Virus record (IMG/VR): IMGVR_UViG_3300045998_000148
Span: 35,878 to 99,877 of that record
Origin: a virus
Reading direction: 5' to 3' (one strand)
Length of the DNA stretch: 64,000 bases
Shown piece after piece: positions 6,725 through 37,186 of the stretch; within the stretch, counting starts at the first letter, position 1, and the number at the start of each line of letters is the position of its first letter. The notes below the pieces were generated by a model. The model saw only the letters and a program-made list of their open reading frames with translations, was not told the DNA's origin and searched no databases. The position numbers and the translations under genes are program-made.

Positions 6725-7786
6725 GAACGCAGCCGCCAATTCTTTCAAAGTCGAATCAGTTGAGAGGTAAAAGCCCGCCGCATTGCGGTGGCCGCCGCCG
6801 CCAAAACGCAGGGCAATTTCGGAAACGTCCCAATTGCTGCCGTTTTTATCGGAGCGCAGCTCCCACTTGCCCTCCGCGTTGTAGCAGGCCACAAAAGGGG
6901 AGCCTGTATATTTTTTGTACAGCGCCCTGCAAATATCGGAAGCGAGATAATCGCGACCTTTCCCCGTCCTCACCGCAGGAATGGAAAAACGGTCAATTTT
7001 CACCCACTGCACCTCATTTTCGACATATTGGCGGACGATCCTTGCATTTTCTTCTACGGCGCGTTTGCCTACAGGCTGCAAAAACCAAAACAGCTCTTGC
7101 TCGGTCATTTCGGCAAGGCGATCGAGGAGCGCAAAATTGAGGCCGAGCGCCCGCAGCGCTTCGTGAATCCACTTCGTTTCGGGGTATTTGAACTCGAAGA
7201 GGTCGCGATCTTTGATGAATTTGAGGATGGGGGGCTTCTCTTGGCCCACAAAAAAATAATTCCAGCAGGCCGTAGCACCCGACTCTTCTAAATCGAAAAA
7301 ACAATCAGCCCTGTCGCCAATTTCTTTGAAAGCGCTTTTGTGGTGGTCGATGACGAGAAGGACGTTTACTTTAGACGCCAACAGATCGAGCTGATCTGGA
7401 GTAAAACTAAAATCGACCGCGTACAGCTTGTCGATGTCGTCCGGCAAAGTGGCGCAAAAAGCTTGGCGGCGATCGTAGGTACAGGGTACGGCGATCGCGT
7501 CGGGATAGTATCGCCGGACGACCCAGGCAGAAGCTATGCCGTCGTGACAGGACGTATCCTCGCTAAGTTGATGGTAAACTGCCGCGATTTTTACCCTCGC
7601 CGAGGTCGCACCGCCGTCTTGGTGCGCGTTCCCTTGGCGAGGAAGCCTCGCCGGGGTCGCACCGCCGTCTTGGTGCGCGTTCCCTTGGCGAGGAAGCCTC
7701 GCCGGGGTCGCACCGCCGTCTTGGTGCGCGTTCCCTTGGCGAGGAAGCCTCGCCGGGGTCGCACCGCTACCTGTATCGCTTGCCAT
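6707..7786 (-). CDS. DHH/DHHA1 phosphoesterase with N-terminal 17-aa repeats
   Basis: CHDGIASA, AVDFSF, VIDHHKSA, SGAT, IKDRDL, FGGGGHRNAAG motifs. Confidence 0.85.
   Translation of the reverse strand: MASDTGSGATPARLPRQGNAHQDGGATPARLPRQGNAHQDGGATPARLPRQGNAHQDGGATSARVKIAAVYHQLSEDTSCHDGIASAWVVRRYYPDAIAVPCTYDRRQAFCATLPDDIDKLYAVDFSFTPDQLDLLASKVNVLLVIDHHKSAFKEIGDRADCFFDLEESGATACWNYFFVGQEKPPILKFIKDRDLFEFKYPETKWIHEALRALGLNFALLDRLAEMTEQELFWFLQPVGKRAVEENARIVRQYVENEVQWVKIDRFSIPAVRTGKGRDYLASDICRALYKKYTGSPFVACYNAEGKWELRSDKNGSNWDVSEIALRFGGGGHRNAAGFYLSTDSTLKELAAAFDAKKN
7595..7767. repeat. 51-bp palindromic dispersed repeat, 3 full tandem copies plus a partial, in frame
   Basis: Unit CCTCGCCGGGGTCGCACCGCCGTCTTGGTGCGCGTTCCCTTGGCGAGGAAG. 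Confidence 0.9.
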
Positions 7787-14509: not shown

Positions 14510-14970
14510 TCTCTTGGTGCGCTTTCCCCTGGCGAGGACGCCTCGCCGGGTTCGCACCGCTCTCTTGGTGCGCTTTCCCCTGGCGAGGACGCCTCGCCGG
14601 GTTCGCACCGCTCTCTTGGTGCGCTTTCCCTTGGCACGATACCTTGCTCCTGCAAGAAAGCAGCAATTTTAGCGGAAGCATCCGCGTGGCCGCAGGCAAC
14701 CAGGCAGATATAGCCGCTTTGTTCGAGCAGCCGGATAAATTGCTGCTCTTGCGTCGAAAGTTCGCTCTTGCGGTAGCGCGACTGGACGGTAAGGAACAGC
14801 CGCCACTCGGGAACGAACAGGTCGGGCAGGGAAGAGAGCGAACCGAGCGCCTTGAGCCGCCTTATACTCTCGCCGCTAAAGGCGTGCGGTCGAGGCAGGG
14901 CGCAGATCAGCTCCGCAAAATTTTGGCGGAACCACTCGACCGTCAATTTCTGCTCGTGATACCTGCTCAA
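14494..14970 (-). CDS. VRR-NUC-like nuclease-fold protein (active site looks degenerate) with C-terminal repeat extension
   Basis: LKALG...PDLFVPEWRLF...LS..EQ.FI..L...GY.C.V..G pattern; TVQ where ExK is expected. Confidence 0.6.
   Translation of the reverse strand: MSRYHEQKLTVEWFRQNFAELICALPRPHAFSGESIRRLKALGSLSSLPDLFVPEWRLFLTVQSRYRKSELSTQEQQFIRLLEQSGYICLVACGHADASAKIAAFLQEQGIVPRESAPRERCEPGEASSPGESAPRERCEPGEASSPGESAPRDQANS
14511..14635. repeat. 51-bp palindromic dispersed repeat, about 2.5 copies
   Basis: Unit CTCTTGGTGCGCTTTCCCCTGGCGAGGACGCCTCGCCGGGTTCGCACCGCT, a permuted close variant of the 7595 unit. Confidence 0.85.
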
Positions 14971-18162: not shown

Positions 18163-18966
18163 ATGCCAACCAGCAAGACAAGCATCGAGATGAACGGCGA
18201 ATCAGTAGCAACCAATTGTTCTCTGGTCTTCAACTACGGGGGCGGTCGGCAAACCGTGGCAATGTGCATCATGATAGCGAAGGGTGTCTTGCCAAAACCC
18301 AATGTTGTCGTAATGGCTGACACTAGCAGAGAAAACCCGATGACATGGGATTACCTTGAAAAGTACACGCAGCCGATGATGACTGAGCTTGGTTGTCCAG
18401 TGGAAATTGCTAGGCATGAGCTTGCAAAAGTGGATCTTTATGCGAACAACGGCAACTTGTTGCTCCCAGTCTATACAAAGGATGGCAAGCTTCCGACGTT
18501 TTGCTCCACTGAGTGGAAGAAGCGTGTTGTGCGAAGGCATCTGCGTGCAAGCGGACACAGTGGCGGAACGCAATGGTTGGGACTGGCGATGGATGAAAAG
18601 CGAAGATGGAAGAAACACCACGGGAAAGTTGAAGGCAAGTGGCTTACCGTTTGTCCGCTTGTTGATTTAATGATTAACACAGATGCCTGCCTGAGCGTCA
18701 TTAAGTCGTTCGGTTGGCCGGAACCGCACCAGTCAGCTTGTTGGATGTGCCCCCATAAGAAGAATGCAGAGTGGCGTGAAATCAGAGACAACCATCCTGC
18801 TGAGTGGAAGCGGGCTGTGGAGCTTGATAAAAAGATTCGAGCTTCCGATGACCACGGCGGCGTGTTTTTGCATCGCGATCGTGTGCCACTGGATCAAGCC
18901 AACTTGGACGCGGAAGAGACTCCCGAGCTAGTGCGGCAGTGCAGTCTCGGTATGTGTTTCGTGTGA
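18163..18966 (+). CDS. PAPS-reductase-family (adenine nucleotide alpha hydrolase) protein
   Basis: YGGGRQT PP-loop variant, MADT..E, CSTEWK, SACWMCP motifs. Confidence 0.75.
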   Translation: MPTSKTSIEMNGESVATNCSLVFNYGGGRQTVAMCIMIAKGVLPKPNVVVMADTSRENPMTWDYLEKYTQPMMTELGCPVEIARHELAKVDLYANNGNLLLPVYTKDGKLPTFCSTEWKKRVVRRHLRASGHSGGTQWLGLAMDEKRRWKKHHGKVEGKWLTVCPLVDLMINTDACLSVIKSFGWPEPHQSACWMCPHKKNAEWREIRDNHPAEWKRAVELDKKIRASDDHGGVFLHRDRVPLDQANLDAEETPELVRQCSLGMCFV

Positions 18967-19015
18967 CCTAACCTAGATTCAAAGAACCAGTCATTGGAAA
19001 ACTGCTAATAGCGAA

Positions 19016-19714
19016 ATGCCGACCAGCAAGACAAGCATCGAGTGGACAGACAAGACTTGGAATCCGACGACGGGCTGCAACAAAGTTAGTCCGGGCTGCC
19101 AGTATTGCTACGCCGAAGCACTGGCCGAAAGATTTCCCAAAAGTTTCACGCAGGGGTTCAAGTTGACCCTGCACCCCGAGCGGATAGAGCAGCCAAAAAA
19201 ATGGCGCAAACCCAGCCGCATTTTCGTGAATTCTATGAGCGATTTGTTTCACGAAGATCTGCCTTTTTCCTACTTGCAGGAGATTTTCGCGGTAATGCAA
19301 GATACGCCGCAGCATACCTATCAAATCCTGACCAAGCGCGATCGGAACTTGGCAAAATTAGCGCCCCTGCTTGAATGGCCTGAAAATATTTGGGCGGGCG
19401 TATCGGTAGAAAGCCAGTCTTATGTCTACCGGATCGATGCCTTGAGAGAAGTTCCCGCAAGAGTACGATTCCTTTCCTGCGAGCCTTTGTTGAGTCCGCT
19501 CGCCCTAAATTTGAAAAAAATTGACTGGGTGATCGTTGGCGGCGAATCTGGATACCGACATCGCCCCATAGAGCCGGAATGGGTGAGGGACATCTTGCGC
19601 CAAACGAGAGAAGCAAAGGCGGCCTTCTTTTTCAAACAGTGGGGCGGACGCCACTCGAAGGCGGGAGGCCGGACATTGGACGATCGCGTGTGGGACGAGA
19701 TGCCATCAGTGTAA
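19016..19714 (+). CDS. DUF5131 / phage Gp37-Gp68 family protein
   Basis: TSIEWTDKTWNPTTGCNKVSPGCQYCYAE, FVNSMSDLFHE, RFLSCEPLL, WVIVGGESG, FFFKQWGG. Confidence 0.92.
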   Translation: MPTSKTSIEWTDKTWNPTTGCNKVSPGCQYCYAEALAERFPKSFTQGFKLTLHPERIEQPKKWRKPSRIFVNSMSDLFHEDLPFSYLQEIFAVMQDTPQHTYQILTKRDRNLAKLAPLLEWPENIWAGVSVESQSYVYRIDALREVPARVRFLSCEPLLSPLALNLKKIDWVIVGGESGYRHRPIEPEWVRDILRQTREAKAAFFFKQWGGRHSKAGGRTLDDRVWDEMPSV

Positions 19715-20673
19715 TGAGCGGGGCTGAAAGGGCTAAGCGATGCCGGGGAAAAAACGGAATGCAAAGAATTAAGCCGTTATTCAGCTATTATGGGGGCAAG
19801 CGGCGTCTAGCAACGCGCATTGCAGCGGAATGCTGGAAAATCCCCCATTCAGTCTACACGGAGCCATTCGCGGGCGGTTGTGCCGTGTTGTTTGCCAAGG
19901 GATTGCCTGCCATCTCTAACAGCGATCATTACCGAGAAGCAATCAACGATCGCGACAGTCGGATCGCTAACATTTACTGGGTTGCGAGACATCACCCAGA
20001 CGAACTAGAAAGGCGATTGCAACTGACGCCTTACAGTCAGGAATGCTATCGGGAGGCAGTGCAACTATGCAAAGAAGGCAGCGACGACCGCATTGAGATG
20101 GCATGGGCTGCGATCGTCAATTTAGAGATGTCGTTTGCAAACAAGATGAATGGAGGATGGGGAACCAATGTTTGTAGCGAGAATCGTGCTGCAACATGGG
20201 CAGCAAAGCGAACAAGCCTGACATTTGCTATGAAAAGGCTTGATCGAGTCTATCTTGGCAATGAAGACGCACTGCGTTTTATTGAGAGATGGGATTCGCC
20301 CCAAAGCTTGCACTATACAGATCCTCCATACCCTAACACCGAACAAGGACATTACAGTGGCTATACTCTGGACGACTGGCAAGCCTTGTGCAACTTGCTA
20401 GACGACATTAATGGCAGCTACATTCTTAGTAACTATTTCCAACCTATTGAGCCAAAATCGGCACAGCAACGGATTGAGATTAGCGTAAATTGTTCTAGCA
20501 GCGGAGCTGGCATGGTTGGCAAGAACAGGGACAAATCGCGAGCTGCCACTGCTGAGGAATTAGGCGATCGCTCTCGGACTGAGGTTTTGTGGATTTGCGA
20601 TCGCTCCCACAAAATCAGGAAAGAACTTTACGCCGTCACTCAGAACAAGCACAAGCAACTCAAATTGCTTTAG
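19714..20673 (+). CDS. Dam-family N6-adenine DNA methyltransferase
   Basis: YYGGK, YTEPFAGG, IND, DPPY motifs; start either 19714 (TAATG coupling) or 19759. Confidence 0.88.
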   Translation: MSGAERAKRCRGKNGMQRIKPLFSYYGGKRRLATRIAAECWKIPHSVYTEPFAGGCAVLFAKGLPAISNSDHYREAINDRDSRIANIYWVARHHPDELERRLQLTPYSQECYREAVQLCKEGSDDRIEMAWAAIVNLEMSFANKMNGGWGTNVCSENRAATWAAKRTSLTFAMKRLDRVYLGNEDALRFIERWDSPQSLHYTDPPYPNTEQGHYSGYTLDDWQALCNLLDDINGSYILSNYFQPIEPKSAQQRIEISVNCSSSGAGMVGKNRDKSRAATAEELGDRSRTEVLWICDRSHKIRKELYAVTQNKHKQLKLL

Positions 20674-20730: not shown

Positions 20731-20825
20731 CCTTTGCCAGAAAAACCATAACTTTGCCAGAGGAAGCATAACTTTGCCAAAGGAACCATAAAACTTCCAA
20801 AACGGCAAAATTATGGTTCCTTTGG
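20731..20825. repeat. Three to four imperfect 20-bp direct repeats plus an inverted copy
   Basis: CTTTGCCAGAAAAACCATAA / CTTTGCCAGAGGAAGCATAA / CTTTGCCAAAGGAACCATAA, then TATGGTTCCTTTGGC. Confidence 0.7.
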
Positions 20826-20905
20826 CTGTCCCCGCACCCCGCAAAAAAAACCGATCGAATCTCGGCGACGATCGGCATACTCTCAAACGATTTAATTTCT
20901 ACATT

Positions 20906-21913
20906 TTAAACTTCTAGCGCAAGCATTTTTCTCAGCCCTTTCTTTTCAGCCACAAGCGAGTCAAATTCCAAGTCTGCAAACCCTTCGTACCACTCCGACC
21001 CCTTTGCCAGGTTTGCGACGATCGCGCCTCGGAGGGGGTTTGCCGAAACAAAACGCCTGCCTTCACTGTCGCTACCGCCCTTGTTTGGAAACATTTCCCG
21101 AATCCGTTCATAATCGGCAATATAGTCTTCCGTTGGGTGGGCTGTCTTCGCATCGACGATCGACGCAACGCGGTTGCTCGACCTCGAATAGAACTGATAG
21201 CCGTGGACGTACTGCTTATTGCGATCGCAGTAATCCGCACAGGCATCAATCAGGTTTGCCGCGACAAATCGATCGGCATCACAAGGCTTATTGAATTTGA
21301 TCGTCTCCAGGCTGACTATATCTGGACAAATCAGGCCGTAGCTGTATCTTCGCTTGTGTCCGAACTTTTCCTGAATTTGATAGAAACCCCAGGTTAGAGG
21401 AGAAAACAAGCTAGCGATCGCATTTTCAAACGACAACCGAATTCCGCTACTGGAATTGGGAATCGCAGTAGACTTCAGCGTAACCCCCTTCGCTCTCGCT
21501 TGAAACTTCAACTTTTTAGCAAAACCTTGATGGACGAACGACTTCAAAAACAACGTATTGAAAGCGATTTCTCCAAAAGGGGATTCGAGGGCGATCGCTT
21601 CAGGGTACAGCATGGGACGCGAGGCGGGCGATTGCAGTAAAGTCTCCAGCATCCCGATATGCGTTGTCAAATTACAACCAGGCAAAGAGATGATCCCGCC
21701 AGAGAGCCGGAAAGTCTGTCGAAACAGAAAATCCCAGGCTTCCACAAAATCGCCATCCCAAGAAACCTCAATTTTGGTTCGGTCTTTCTGCCACTGAAAG
21801 ACAGATTGCTCTTTAGGCAGAGATTCGAGGGCAAAGGCCAACCCCGCAATCCCGGCAGAAATATGACAGTCGCCAATAGAATGCGACAAAACATCAAAAG
21901 TCAATGAATTCAT
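20906..21913 (-). CDS. Orphan, C-terminally truncated Cas8 homologue (type I-MYXAN Cas8a1/Cmx1-like), 335 aa
   Basis: Colinear motifs recalled from cyanobacterial Cmx1: AGIAGL..AL, SWDG...WDFLFRQTF, ISLPG, H.G..ET.LQ, SFVHQGFA, ASLFSP, LICPDIVSLE, RGAIVANLAKG..WY..F, E.KGL.KM; start at 21913 with ATGA overlap and GGAGG RBS. Confidence 0.7.
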   Translation of the reverse strand: MNSLTFDVLSHSIGDCHISAGIAGLAFALESLPKEQSVFQWQKDRTKIEVSWDGDFVEAWDFLFRQTFRLSGGIISLPGCNLTTHIGMLETLLQSPASRPMLYPEAIALESPFGEIAFNTLFLKSFVHQGFAKKLKFQARAKGVTLKSTAIPNSSSGIRLSFENAIASLFSPLTWGFYQIQEKFGHKRRYSYGLICPDIVSLETIKFNKPCDADRFVAANLIDACADYCDRNKQYVHGYQFYSRSSNRVASIVDAKTAHPTEDYIADYERIREMFPNKGGSDSEGRRFVSANPLRGAIVANLAKGSEWYEGFADLEFDSLVAEKKGLRKMLALEV

Positions 21914-22290
21914 GCTGCTACCGCCTCCACTTCCCGACTCTCCCGCAAAAGCTCGGAAAAATCCGGCATATTCGACAGCCCGCTTTTTTTCCAGGCAAAC
22001 TGCCGGTTGTTTCCCATCACCCAATAGAGGCCATTCGTCAAAAAAACGGCGGCATAGGGATAGCCATCGTCTTCCGGGCATCCAGCCGCCGCCCGTAATT
22101 CCTTGCCAAAATCGTAGGGCGATTCAAATTCTGTACTGACCACCTCCTCGAAAATGAATTTGTCGAGCTGCGCCGGAAAGTGCGCGTTAATCCACCGATT
22201 GTCGGCGATCGCAATCCCCAACTTTTGCACGAAATCCAAATAAGCCGTGGCGTTTGCCTTAGCATCAGACTTATAAACGTAAACGGTCAT
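21910..22290 (-). CDS. Hypothetical protein coupled to the cas8-like gene
   Basis: AAGGAG RBS; stop overlaps the cas8-like ATG. Confidence 0.7.
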   Translation of the reverse strand: MTVYVYKSDAKANATAYLDFVQKLGIAIADNRWINAHFPAQLDKFIFEEVVSTEFESPYDFGKELRAAAGCPEDDGYPYAAVFLTNGLYWVMGNNRQFAWKKSGLSNMPDFSELLRESREVEAVAA

Positions 22291-22337
22291 TGCCTTACTC
22301 CTTTTTTTTCGTTTTTGCCGACAGGTCGAGATGGCTC

Positions 22338-22853
22338 CTAAATTTGCGCTGCGATGTTCCGTACTTCTGACGGCTTGGTGAGACTTTCTGGAACTTCCAG
22401 ACTGGAGGAACTATCCCCCAGCTTGAAAACCCGCTCGACTTCCCTCAGCGTCTCTTCGCCACAAGTGGGACGCTTCCAAAACCGCTCAGTAGCATCGATC
22501 GCAGCCATCGCCTCCAAAGAATTGAAGTTTGCAAGCTTTTCCAGCAGCTCGTGACGATCTGCACCCCACTTCGCATCCAACCCGTTCTCCTCGATCGCCG
22601 ATTCGACCGAAAGCAACAGCGCCGCATCTGGCGACAGACAGGGATCGAAAAATTCCCCATTGAGGGCATCGCAAAGCAGCAGGGCTTCATTGCGATTGAG
22701 CGACAATTTTTTAAGCGATCGATCGACCAAGGCATAATACCTCGCGAGATCTGACTGCGCCTGAACTCCCAAGGAAGCGCCCCACTTGACGCGATCGCTC
22801 AAGTTTTCTTGGAGCGCCTTGTTTAGACGGAAAGAGACACTGGGACTGGGCAT
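22338..22853 (-). CDS. Putative ribbon-helix-helix DNA-binding protein, first gene of the cas8-like operon
   Basis: N-terminal SVSFRL beta-strand followed by two helices; AAGGAG RBS. Confidence 0.55.
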   Translation of the reverse strand: MPSPSVSFRLNKALQENLSDRVKWGASLGVQAQSDLARYYALVDRSLKKLSLNRNEALLLCDALNGEFFDPCLSPDAALLLSVESAIEENGLDAKWGADRHELLEKLANFNSLEAMAAIDATERFWKRPTCGEETLREVERVFKLGDSSSSLEVPESLTKPSEVRNIAAQI

Positions 22854-22877
22854 TACGGACTCCTTTTCTTTTGCTCC

Positions 22878-22906
22878 ACTGTATTCCAACTGCCCACAGT
22901 TGTCAA
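22878..22906 (-). promoter_or_regulatory. sigma70-type promoter TTGACA-N17-TACAGT with an overlapping CAACTG-N4-CAGTTG palindrome
   Basis: Minus strand reads TTGACA actgtgggcagttggaa TACAGT just upstream of the operon. Confidence 0.65.
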
Positions 22907-22970: not shown

Positions 22971-23178
22971 GATTTATTGTCTACTTACCGACTTTATTAT
23001 CTATTTACCGACTTTATTATCTATTTACCGACTTTATTATCTATTATTTGCCGAATTACCTACTTACCGACTTTATTATCTATTTACCGACTTTATTATC
23101 TATTTGCCGAAGTATTTATTTACTGACTTTATTACCTACTTGCCAACTTTATTATCTATTTACCGACTTTATTATCTT
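22971..23178. repeat. AT-rich 20-bp tandem repeats (CTATTTACCGACTTTATTAT), roughly 9-10 copies, iteron-like
   Basis: Visible perfect and degenerate copies in intergenic DNA. Confidence 0.85.
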
Positions 23179-31033: not shown

Positions 31034-32582
31034 CGAAGCTGAAATCCTGAATTTAGAATCGCTCCGCGCACTTCGCCCCCTCCCGTCCGATCGCGCTGCC
31101 GAAGAGGTCGCCCTTTCTCAGTCGGCTCGATATTTGCGCGAGGAGGCGGACGTTCTCTGCGATGCGAAGGCGGAAGCTTTTATCCTCGCTGTCGGGATGA
31201 CCCAAGGGAGCGACGAGTCCGCGATCGCCGTCCTGAATGCCCTACACATCGACGATTTCAGCCAAGCCGCCCATCGGATTATCTACTCCGCGATTGCGGC
31301 ATCGATCGCGGCGGACGTCTCCCCGAGCTTGCAGTCGGTCGAGCTGTACCTGCGCTCCTCGAATCAGCTCGAAGCGGTCGGCGGCTACGAAGGACTGATC
31401 GCCTCGATCGCGACCGCCGCCGTCGCGTTTGAGAACTACAGCGACAGCCCGATGCAGTCGAGCATAGAGCGGACTGCCGCTCACCTCGCGGAATTGTCGG
31501 GCAAGCGCAAGCTGTTGGGCGTCCTCGAAACGAATCGCGTCGAACTGCTGCAATCGGTAGAGCGCGGCGTCAGCCTCAATCAGACGGTTCAAGACTTGGT
31601 AGAGAATTCCCTTGCCGTCCTCGGCTCCCGAGGGGGCGGCTCCGGGTCTATCTCCGACATCCATTTCGCCCAGCTCGATATTATCGAGCGAATACAGTCG
31701 GGAGAACTGCGCGAAACCTCGGTCGGGCTGACGGGATTGCCCGACTACAACGAGGCCACTTGTCTGACCTTCGGCGACATGGCCATCCTTAACGCCGAAG
31801 CGAAACAGGGAAAGACTTCCTGGCTCGTCTTCAACGCTTACAATTACGCAAGACAGGGCTACCCTACGATTATCTGGTCTGGCGAACAGCCTACCGCTCA
31901 GATCTGGTCGCGATTCCTCGCCTGCCATACGGGGATAAATCACCAAGTCCTGTCCCGCTCCAAACAATACCTCAACGAAAGCGACCTGATTAAGTTGGGC
32001 GAGTCGAGCGGCATTCTCTCGGAAATGCCCCTATTTATCGCTACTTCTACCAATGAAGCCGACTTTAATCGCGAATACGCCCAGGCGTGCAACTTCTTTG
32101 CTAGACTGGTGGATGCGGGCGCTCCGTCGAGTTGCAGCAGCGTACCGCAAATCTTGATCGTGGATTACTTGCAGCTTTTAGCTCGCAACGAATCCGCCGA
32201 GCTGGAGGAGTTCTGCAAGCGGCTTAAAAACGAGTACGCCAAGCGGCGCAACCTCCTGGTTCTCCTGCTCGCACAATCGCCCACCCTCGGCGATCGCAAG
32301 TGGCGGATGCCGGAAGCGGATGACATTTCGTACTGCAAGACGGCGAGGCAGCACGTCGATATGGTCATGGGACTCTACCGCCCGGATTACATTCCCATCG
32401 ACAATCGCGGCGATCGCTATCAGAATACCGACTTGCGCGAATGTACGACGTTTATCAAGATTACCGCCGCCCGCCACGTCCCCTTTCCCGTCTTGCTCCA
32501 GTTTCAAACGGATCTGGCAACCTGCCGCTACGGGCATATCGAACAAGAACTCAAGGTCTATCCCTATGTGGGCGGCGATTGA
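31023..32582 (+). CDS. dnaB: DnaB-like replicative helicase
   Basis: N-terminal DF...AHRIIY domain, TGLPDYN, KQGKTS Walker A, SGEQ, IVDYLQLL, LLAQ, DMVMGLYR. Confidence 0.85.
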   Translation: MATDEAEILNLESLRALRPLPSDRAAEEVALSQSARYLREEADVLCDAKAEAFILAVGMTQGSDESAIAVLNALHIDDFSQAAHRIIYSAIAASIAADVSPSLQSVELYLRSSNQLEAVGGYEGLIASIATAAVAFENYSDSPMQSSIERTAAHLAELSGKRKLLGVLETNRVELLQSVERGVSLNQTVQDLVENSLAVLGSRGGGSGSISDIHFAQLDIIERIQSGELRETSVGLTGLPDYNEATCLTFGDMAILNAEAKQGKTSWLVFNAYNYARQGYPTIIWSGEQPTAQIWSRFLACHTGINHQVLSRSKQYLNESDLIKLGESSGILSEMPLFIATSTNEADFNREYAQACNFFARLVDAGAPSSCSSVPQILIVDYLQLLARNESAELEEFCKRLKNEYAKRRNLLVLLLAQSPTLGDRKWRMPEADDISYCKTARQHVDMVMGLYRPDYIPIDNRGDRYQNTDLRECTTFIKITAARHVPFPVLLQFQTDLATCRYGHIEQELKVYPYVGGD

Positions 32583-36649: not shown

Positions 36650-37186
36650 ATGATTGCAGTAGCCACCAGAAACAATCCCGCGATCTATATCGCTGACCTT
36701 GCCGCCTATAACGCGGGTATCCTGTCTGGCGAGTGGATCGACGCGGATCGAGAAGCAGACGAGATCCACCAGGATATAGTCGATCTGCTTTCCAGATCGC
36801 CCATCCAAAACGCTGAAGAGTATGCGATCCACGACTCAGAGGGGTTTTTTGGCTTAAAAATACATGACTTTGAATCGCTCGCAAAAATAGCGGAATATGG
36901 GCAAGCGATCGCCGAATTCGGGCGATCCGCCGCCGCTTTTATCGATTATCAGGGGGAATGGGATCGAGAGGCTTATCTAGACGCCTATATTGGCGAATAT
37001 GACAGCGAAGCTGATTTCTGCTATGCGCGGCTAGAGGAAACCGGAGAACTAGAGGCGATCGAAAAAGTCGCACCTAGCGCGGCTGCCTATATCGATTTTG
37101 AGGCAGTGGCTAGAGACTGGTTTCTAAGCGATTTTTGGGAAACTAAAGGCGATTCTGGCAAAATTTTAGTTTTCTATCGATGGTAG
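36650..37186 (+). CDS. ardA: Antirestriction protein ArdA (cassette gene D)
   Basis: IYIADLAAYNAGILSGEWIDA, EEYAIHDSEGF, Y.GEYDSEADF, YIDFEAVARD; highly acidic. Confidence 0.9.
   Translation: MIAVATRNNPAIYIADLAAYNAGILSGEWIDADREADEIHQDIVDLLSRSPIQNAEEYAIHDSEGFFGLKIHDFESLAKIAEYGQAIAEFGRSAAAFIDYQGEWDREAYLDAYIGEYDSEADFCYARLEETGELEAIEKVAPSAAAYIDFEAVARDWFLSDFWETKGDSGKILVFYRW

Follow-up and report, generated by a model that had tools for sequence, protein, structure and literature searches.

An orphan Cas8 N-terminal domain in a three-gene viral operon: a candidate Cas-derived anti-CRISPR of a putative cyanophage

The operon of interest lies in a 64,000-nucleotide (nt) stretch of viral DNA, corresponding to bases 35878–99877 of the linear, 99,877-bp IMG/VR viral contig IMGVR_UViG_3300045998_000148. 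This whole stretch is hereafter called the window, and coordinates refer to it unless marked as contig coordinates. The operon consists of three co-oriented, minus-strand genes in the order P0003, P0002, P0001. The last of these encodes a homologue of the N-terminal part of Cas8, the large subunit of the CRISPR (short palindromic repeats, clustered and regularly interspaced) effector complex Cascade, and the operon as a whole is a candidate source of anti-CRISPR (Acr) activity. Its features, in the direction of transcription, are:

22878–22906, minus strand: sigma-70-type operon promoter, TTGACA-17 nt-TACAGT, matching 10 of 12 consensus positions and the best such site in the region
22887–22902, no strand assigned: perfect palindrome CAACTG-N4-CAGTTG, a candidate operator for P0003, overlapping the -35 hexamer and the spacer
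22338–22853, minus strand: P0003, 171 amino acids (aa), an AcrIE10-like candidate autorepressor and possible Acr, with a basic N-terminal ribbon-helix-helix-like segment and an acidic helical domain
21910–22290, minus strand: P0002, 126 aa, an acidic orphan, translationally coupled to P0001; a second Acr candidate or a partner of P0001
20906–21913, minus strand: P0001, 335 aa, homologue of the type I-B/I-MYXAN Cas8 N-terminal domain by profile and structure, lacking the Cas11-like bundle
20850–20866, minus strand: terminator-like hairpin and T-run closing the operon, found by pattern scan ~40 nt past the P0001 stop codon

AGGAG-type ribosome-binding sites precede P0003 and P0002, while the stop codon of P0002 and the start codon of P0001 overlap in the sequence ATGA, with a GGAGG 9 nt upstream of the P0001 start. 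A longer, 391-aa frame for P0001 is an artefact, because its homologues begin at the same MNSLTFD methionine. The palindrome has a single match in the window (0.05 expected by chance). An earlier reading of the sequence by a model (the initial annotation) had proposed both a three-gene operon led by a ribbon-helix-helix-like protein and a promoter overlapped by this palindrome. Both proposals hold: the fold predicted for the leading protein, P0003, matches that of the ribbon-helix-helix protein AcrIE10 (see below), and the palindrome falls inside the promoter.

Two lines of evidence identify P0001. Firstly, it is matched by sequence profiles: TIGR03485 (cas_csx13_N, type I-MYXAN Cas8a1/Cmx1) with an E-value of 5.6e-13 and 48.3 bits, and the PADLOC families Cas8b (3e-14) and Cas8a. 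A three-sequence profile searched against the PDB matched one sequence, 8fcj_I (534 aa; E 1.4e-14; chain residues 32–371), the Cas8 of a type I-B CRISPR-associated transposon (CAST) Cascade (PDB 8FCJ, chain I), and the profile alignment shows the motifs of the two proteins to be colinear. Secondly, an AlphaFold2 model of P0001, built from a 49-row alignment, is of high confidence (predicted local distance difference test, pLDDT, 95; predicted template-modelling score 0.93), and its top Foldseek match is again 8fcj_I (E 2.7e-20; template-modelling score 0.83), with two Synechocystis structures of type I-B Cas8b, 8H67 and 8IP0, ranking next. VIA-align superposes model residues 1–335 on 8fcj_I residues 6–397 (Z 32.0; root-mean-square deviation, rmsd, 2.5 Å; 327 residues aligned; 20% identity), with Z scores of 16.8 and 16.6 against type I-B Cas8b and 8.5 against type I-A Cas8a. 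The BFVD viral structure library held no relative of P0001 at E ≤ 0.001.

The same comparisons locate the end of the protein. P0001 stops at the equivalent of residue 397 of 534 in 8FCJ, and the last ~137 residues of that chain (~398–534), a helical bundle, are absent. P0001 is thus the entire Cas8 N-terminal domain plus a short helical hairpin, cut just before the Cas11-like bundle. Control cyanobacterial Cas8a1 proteins (494 and 619 aa) match TIGR03485 at 147–154 bits and carry, at residues ~326–467, the C-terminal domain TIGR03486 (csx13_C); no match to TIGR03486 was found in the six frames of the 99.9-kb contig. The initial annotation had taken the 335-aa frame, from its motifs, for a Cas8a1/Cmx1 protein without its Cas11-like C-terminus, and the profile and structural comparisons agree with it on both homology and truncation point.

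The missing part has a defined role in a related complex. In the Synechocystis type I-B Cascade, the Cas8b N-terminal domain holds the non-target strand and, jointly with Cas5b, reads the protospacer-adjacent motif (PAM), while the C-terminal domain is identical to Cas11b and forms the belly of the complex with three Cas11b copies (PMC11096372). As the full R-loop forms, this C-terminal domain moves, and the movement is linked to the recruitment of Cas3 (PMC11096372).

Rather than being an isolated truncation, P0001 belongs to a clade of short Cas8 proteins that is old and diverged. When 1.84 billion cluster representatives were searched exhaustively with HMMER, 96 matched, in two length classes: about 12 proteins of 330–440 aa at E < 1e-25, and many of 500–570 aa with weaker scores. 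A maximum-likelihood tree of 52 proteins has a branch with a support of 99 (Shimodaira–Hasegawa-like approximate likelihood ratio test, SH-aLRT) that separates 16 short forms and one N-terminally extended form from 35 rows (32 full-length and three sporadic short proteins). Members of the short clade are ~27–63% identical to P0001, and all end no more than ~25 residues after the motif RG..(A/V).N...G..WY. The persistence of a confident fold at identities down to ~30% argues for function being kept in the clade. The family is rare, since each of its 90%-identity clusters holds only one or two members.

Full-length Cas8a1 proteins are encoded in cas operons. Downstream of full-length cas8, cas7 and cas5 were present in 17 of 17 fetched loci, often with an array of 36-nt repeats nearby. 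Among 401 sampled cyanobacterial genomes, 33 contained a Cas8 match, almost always as an open frame of ~490–620 aa, and no high-scoring member of the short family was seen among the 401. One of the sampled genomes, G179, carries two frames of 250 and 282 aa, 22 kb apart (C1:3801506–3802231 and C1:3823129–3823920), that match the first ~210–225 Cas8 profile positions and may be fragments or another short form. Searches for loci related to the P0001 family returned none from viral contigs, exclusively canonical full-length cas8 operons from genome contigs and, from metagenome contigs, no short-family locus, only a frameshifted remnant of the tail module described below. INPHARED phages gave no match to the family, and plasmids gave annotated cas8a1 only.

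P0001 stands alone on its contig. Six-frame searches of the 99.9 kb found no match to the DevR/Cas7, Cas5 or Cas3 core, and a PADLOC scan of 94 open reading frames (ORFs) contained no further Cas family among the 25 families listed. No CRISPR-like array was found on the contig, whose tandem repeats are perfect head-to-tail units. The absence of a cas operon and array, noted for the window in the initial annotation, therefore extends to the whole contig; it holds for the 99.9-kb sequence only, because CheckV estimates the contig to be 88% complete. The idea of a Racr or solitary CRISPR repeat was tried and set aside: for nine I-MYXAN repeat variants from the fetched arrays, the longest contig match was 13 nt, and there were no spacer-like matches.

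If P0001 enters a Cascade, its predicted point of contact is Cas5. P0001 (49-row alignment) was modelled with a stand-in Cas5 (17-row alignment), taken from a cyanobacterial I-MYXAN locus: the one with the Cas8 that gave the best score against the short family. The pair scored 0.76, against 0.01 for the best of three controls; 58 of 80 solved complexes and 2 of 110 mismatched pairs reach this mark. The initial annotation had suggested modelling the protein with host Cas5/Cas7; the separation from controls obtained here carries three reservations: (i) the Cas5 is a stand-in, (ii) individual runs scored 0.76, 0.77 and 0.01 (agreement of contacts between runs at least 0%; partner pLDDT at least 86), and (iii) the score may reflect likeness or memory, because a like complex, 8FCJ, is solved. 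The model supports a Cas5-facing surface of P0001 that is still Cas8-like, rather than demonstrating binding.

The leading gene of the operon, P0003, has four remote homologues (142–160 aa) that share the motifs RDLARYY, EALLLCDALNG, KWG.D and DATERFW. It belongs to no family in NCBIfam, Pfam, PADLOC or PHROGs, and gave no usable ESM Atlas match. Residues 1–50 have an isoelectric point (pI) of 10.0 and residues 51–171 one of 4.5. In an AlphaFold2 monomer model (pLDDT 77) the N-terminal strand is not formed. The best PDB match to this model is AcrIE10 (9m7t_A: Z 8.7; rmsd 3.2 Å; 113 of 115 residues), with the next entry at Z 3.7; by Foldseek, the match has a probability of 0.98 but an E-value of 0.45. 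At the sequence level the two proteins align colinearly but not significantly (E 0.95; 12.2 bits). AcrIE10, from Klebsiella plasmids, combines a ribbon-helix-helix with an Acr domain, making it a bifunctional Acr and Acr-associated (Aca) protein that binds Cas7 (PMC13530269); it represses its own acr operon through an inverted repeat over the -35 and -10 elements (PMC13530269). The view of P0003 as a ribbon-helix-helix, Aca-like leader protein accordingly gains from the AcrIE10-like fold and the promoter palindrome, but cannot lean on a significant sequence match. Two other identities were considered and dropped: a CasPR-type repressor (CasPR proteins are CapR+AP2 proteins), and the antitoxin of a toxin-antitoxin pair, as no toxin family is matched and what the third gene encodes is a Cas8 head.

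P0002 is acidic (pI 4.7), belongs to no family in NCBIfam, Pfam, PADLOC or PHROGs, and has no homologue among 5.8 billion proteins in a word-index search and no usable ESM Atlas match. Its nomination in the initial annotation as a second Acr candidate can be kept on the sole basis that it is small, acidic and coupled to P0001; detectable relatives are lacking.

Taken together, we consider there to be about an even chance that the operon is a phage counter-CRISPR module in which P0001 is a Cas-derived anti-CRISPR that replaces Cas8 in the host type I-B/I-MYXAN Cascade. P0001 would bring to the complex the whole Cas8 N-terminal domain; solved type I-B Cascades show this domain positioned on Cas5, at the 5' end of the CRISPR RNA (crRNA), and reading the PAM. 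Early in infection, it could compete with host Cas8 for Cas5 and crRNA-loaded Cas7. A Cascade loaded with P0001 would then be unable to complete or lock the R-loop, or to recruit Cas3, and interference would fail. Binding of P0003 to the palindrome over the -35 hexamer would repress the operon, and the protein may itself bind a Cas subunit through its acidic helical domain.

There are precedents for such proteins. Katz, Sawyer et al. report 358 orphan viral cas genes in IMG/VR (bioRxiv 10.1101/2023.06.24.545427). Two proteins encoded on Listeria phages and plasmids inhibit type I-B immunity in Listeria and leave Cascade assembly intact: AcrIB3, which is homologous to Cas5, and AcrIB4, which is homologous to the final 90 residues of Cas8b. 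AcrIB3 is incorporated into the complex; tagging of AcrIB4 was not possible (bioRxiv 10.1101/2023.06.24.545427). A later preprint proposes that AcrIB4 replaces Cas11.

Several observations weigh against an anti-CRISPR role of this kind. Over-expressed native Cas8b did not inhibit Listeria interference, and AcrIB3 and AcrIB4 act upstream of DNA binding, not at Cas3 recruitment (bioRxiv 10.1101/2023.06.24.545427); because of these differing results, the exact step proposed here for P0001 is a guess. The predicted Cas5-interface residues are no more conserved than the rest of P0001, when compared with the invariant columns of the alignment. The TIGR03485 score falls short of the curated NCBIfam cut-off of 80.85 bits. 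Homologues of P0002 and P0003 were not seen travelling with those of P0001, and no spacer from the few fetched arrays matches the phage. Finally, some relatives of P0001 carry additional C-terminal parts, which fit a gained function better than a dead subunit.

These C-terminal parts are of two kinds. Many short Cas8 forms, including P0004–P0010, end in a conserved, basic tail of ~55 aa (WK..TGFE..D.RKGY.AG..A..RG...LP..W..GY..G), for which no Pfam family was matched; P0001 lacks it. Two truncated Cas8c/Csd1 proteins share this ending, P0030 (Pfam Cas_Csd1 positions 60–438 of 559) and P0100 (15–460 of 559), as do two small proteins, P0027 and P0052, the former with an N-terminus that looks ribbon-helix-helix-like by eye. 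The tail appears to be a mobile C-terminal module, and is not encoded elsewhere on the phage contig. The frameshifted remnant from a metagenome contig (L037:7585–7801) adjoins an IS630-family transposase. The second kind is an endonuclease domain: two members of the short clade, P0013 (419 aa) and P0017 (440 aa), have a C-terminal HNH_3 domain above the Pfam cut-off.

Because the C-termini of relatives are modular, a second reading is retained beside poisoning. Here, the short Cas8 would replace the host large subunit in a Cascade that still binds DNA but serves the phage, as a crRNA-guided repressor or, in relatives, as a new effector; in the case of this phage, whose short Cas8 has no tail, interference would become binding that is harmless or useful. 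For P0001 itself we regard this as possible but doubtful. A whole PAM-reading, Cas5-contacting N-terminal domain with a high-confidence fold is what such a protein would keep, and the HNH_3 ends of P0013 and P0017, with the tail common to short Cas8 and Cas8c/Csd1 proteins, fit a pattern of a large-subunit head plus a new payload; given these add-ons, repurposing of Cascade is as plausible as simple poisoning. P0001, however, has neither tail nor HNH domain, the contig yielded no phage crRNA or I-MYXAN-like repeat (nine repeat variants; best match 13 nt), and stable R-loops may not form without the Cas11-like bundle. A broader version of the same idea is that cyanobacterial mobile elements encode "replacement large subunits"—an I-B/MYXAN or I-C Cas8 head with the same border and a payload that is absent, a 55-aa tail or an HNH domain—that plug into the host crRNA-loaded Cascade and make of it a tool or a dud. 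This modular hijacking we put forward tentatively, at a low probability.

The operon is flanked on both sides by repeats. Upstream, ~10 tandem, AT-rich, iteron-like 20-bp repeats (unit CTTTATTATCTATTTACCGA) occupy 22976–23178, between a 384-aa gene and the operon promoter. Directly downstream, a 17-nt motif, GGCAAAGTTATG[G/C]TTCC, is clustered at 20742–20820 in one inverted and two to four direct copies at ~20-nt spacing. Clusters are likewise found in seven of ten IMG/VR contigs matched by exact 17-mer, and similar ones in the cyanobacterial genome G153. There, one group of five copies is located upstream of cas6, cas8 and cas5 genes that form a cluster lacking cas3, while contig ends hold others. 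No homologue of P0001–P0003 was found in these other loci in G153 and the IMG/VR contigs. The motif cluster may be an operator or a transposon-end-like element; a reading as a Tn7/CAST end was rejected, as G153 has TniQ only on a different contig and no TnsA match, and the motif loci lack P0001–P0003 homologues.

Such flanks bear on a third reading, in which the genes are an exapted DNA-binding or regulatory set outside CRISPR, acting in replication, partition or gene control, perhaps on the nearby 20-bp repeats. Repeat arrays are a common target of ribbon-helix-helix proteins in systems for partition and copy control, and both the iteron-like repeats directly upstream of the promoter and the motif cluster directly downstream would suit such a role. 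We nevertheless find it improbable: the operon contains no ParA-, ParM- or TubZ-type partner, the 17-nt motif recurs in cyanobacterial elements without P0001–P0003 homologues, and the promoter is overlapped by the palindrome rather than by iterons. In addition, the complex model is in favour of predicted Cas5 binding, and the closest structure to P0003 is that of an anti-CRISPR.

A fourth reading makes P0001 part of a minimal or novel CRISPR-derived effector encoded by the phage, with its other parts either encoded in unsequenced DNA or not recognisable as such, P0002 perhaps being one of these. The incomplete contig leaves room for this, P0002 is tightly coupled to P0001 and of no known fold, and compact phage type I systems are reported (PMC10161043). 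The likelihood is slight all the same: the 99.9 kb contain no array and no match to Cas5, Cas7, Cas3 or the C-domain of Cas8, no further Cas family is among the 25 top PADLOC families for 94 ORFs, and the operon has its own promoter and terminator. Finally, that P0001 is a decaying, functionless remnant of a captured host cas8, as its reduced length and sub-threshold NCBIfam score might hint, is very hard to credit in view of its intact frame, Shine-Dalgarno sequence, translational coupling and pLDDT-95 fold, and a separate clade of at least 16 cluster representatives with ~30% identity and a common end point does not fit recent decay.

The wider contig encodes viral proteins, with genes for a large terminase, a major capsid protein, Mu-F-like and tail morphogenesis proteins, and a DnaG/DnaB-type replication set. 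GCGATCGC sites, which are typical of cyanobacteria, are present in the sequence inspected; together with the exclusively cyanobacterial origin of the relatives found, they point to a cyanophage or prophage as the source. The GC content around the operon is 0.48–0.49, rising to 0.55–0.58 in the flanks, and the neighbouring genes at 18163–20673 encode a Dam methylase, a PAPS-reductase-like protein and a DUF5131 protein. We count this low-GC setting and these neighbours, along with the ArdA and C5 methylase genes of the contig, as support for the counter-CRISPR reading.

Other features of the contig are recorded for completeness. Its anti-restriction set includes ArdA at 36683–37132 and a C5 cytosine methylase somewhere on the contig. 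In a Pfam tally of the 94 contig ORFs, the signalling domains GAF and GGDEF appear, along with two proteins resembling class I chitinases (Glyco_hydro_19). Near-perfect tandem copies of a palindromic, GC-rich unit of 51 bp are present at window positions 7595–7767 and 14510–14635, and at contig positions 32172–32274 and 32887–32989.

Cas-derived anti-CRISPRs are already known, and have been shown so far mainly in Listeria; what is new here is the N-terminal-only form of Cas8 and the modular family behind P0001. We found no description of an N-terminal-only Cas8 family in the literature. To our knowledge, and judging also by the literature searched, cyanobacterial type I-B/MYXAN systems would have their first candidate anti-CRISPR in P0001. 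If the anti-CRISPR reading is true, a family that keeps the PAM-reading, Cas5-binding head of Cas8 is the reciprocal of the Listeria case. The occurrence of one tail on truncated large subunits of two subtypes, and of HNH domains on others, hints at a general re-equipping of host Cascade by mobile elements. The closest solved relative of P0001 is the Cas8 of a type I-B CRISPR-associated transposon, and the protein could, again if the reading is true, find use with type I-B editors and type I-B CRISPR-associated transposons, either to switch them off or to re-target them.

P0001 and its operon can be compared with four known systems. With the Cas8 of 8FCJ and cyanobacterial Cas8a1/Cmx1, P0001 shares its fold over residues 1–335 and a colinear series of motifs; it differs in having no helical bundle, in scoring below the TIGR03485 cut-off and in falling in a separate clade. 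Moreover, unlike cyanobacterial Cas8a1/Cmx1, it has no adjoining cas6, cas3, cas7, cas5 or array. Altae-Tran and colleagues reportedly described, in 2023, Cascade variants whose large subunit bears an HNH domain; in these, the HNH-bearing Cas8 belongs to a full cas operon with an array. P0013 and P0017 resemble these in fusing a Cas8 head to HNH, whereas P0001 has no HNH domain.

The comparison with AcrIE10 (PDB 9M71, 9M7T) concerns P0003. In its modelled form, P0003 appears to share the two-part build of an N-terminal ribbon-helix-helix and a small helical domain, and its operon likewise has a promoter overlapped by an inverted repeat, here a candidate operator on the strength of its sequence. 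P0003 differs in being longer, with a disordered acidic tail of ~45 aa and no significant sequence similarity, and in standing first in its operon; in the name of the acrIE9.2-acrIE10 locus, it is acrIE9.2 that comes first. Its target, too, would be type I-B/MYXAN, where that of AcrIE10 is I-E*.

The closest parallels in kind are AcrIB3 and AcrIB4. Like them, P0001 is a homologue of a Cascade subunit, carried on a viral contig outside any cas locus found and belonging to a clade of its own (SH-aLRT 99). Theirs are Bacillota hosts and their activity is shown, while P0001 is cyanobacterial by its relatives and a candidate. AcrIB4 and P0001 also draw on opposite ends of the large subunit: AcrIB4 corresponds to the Cas11-like end of Cas8b, and P0001 is the reciprocal, N-terminal piece.

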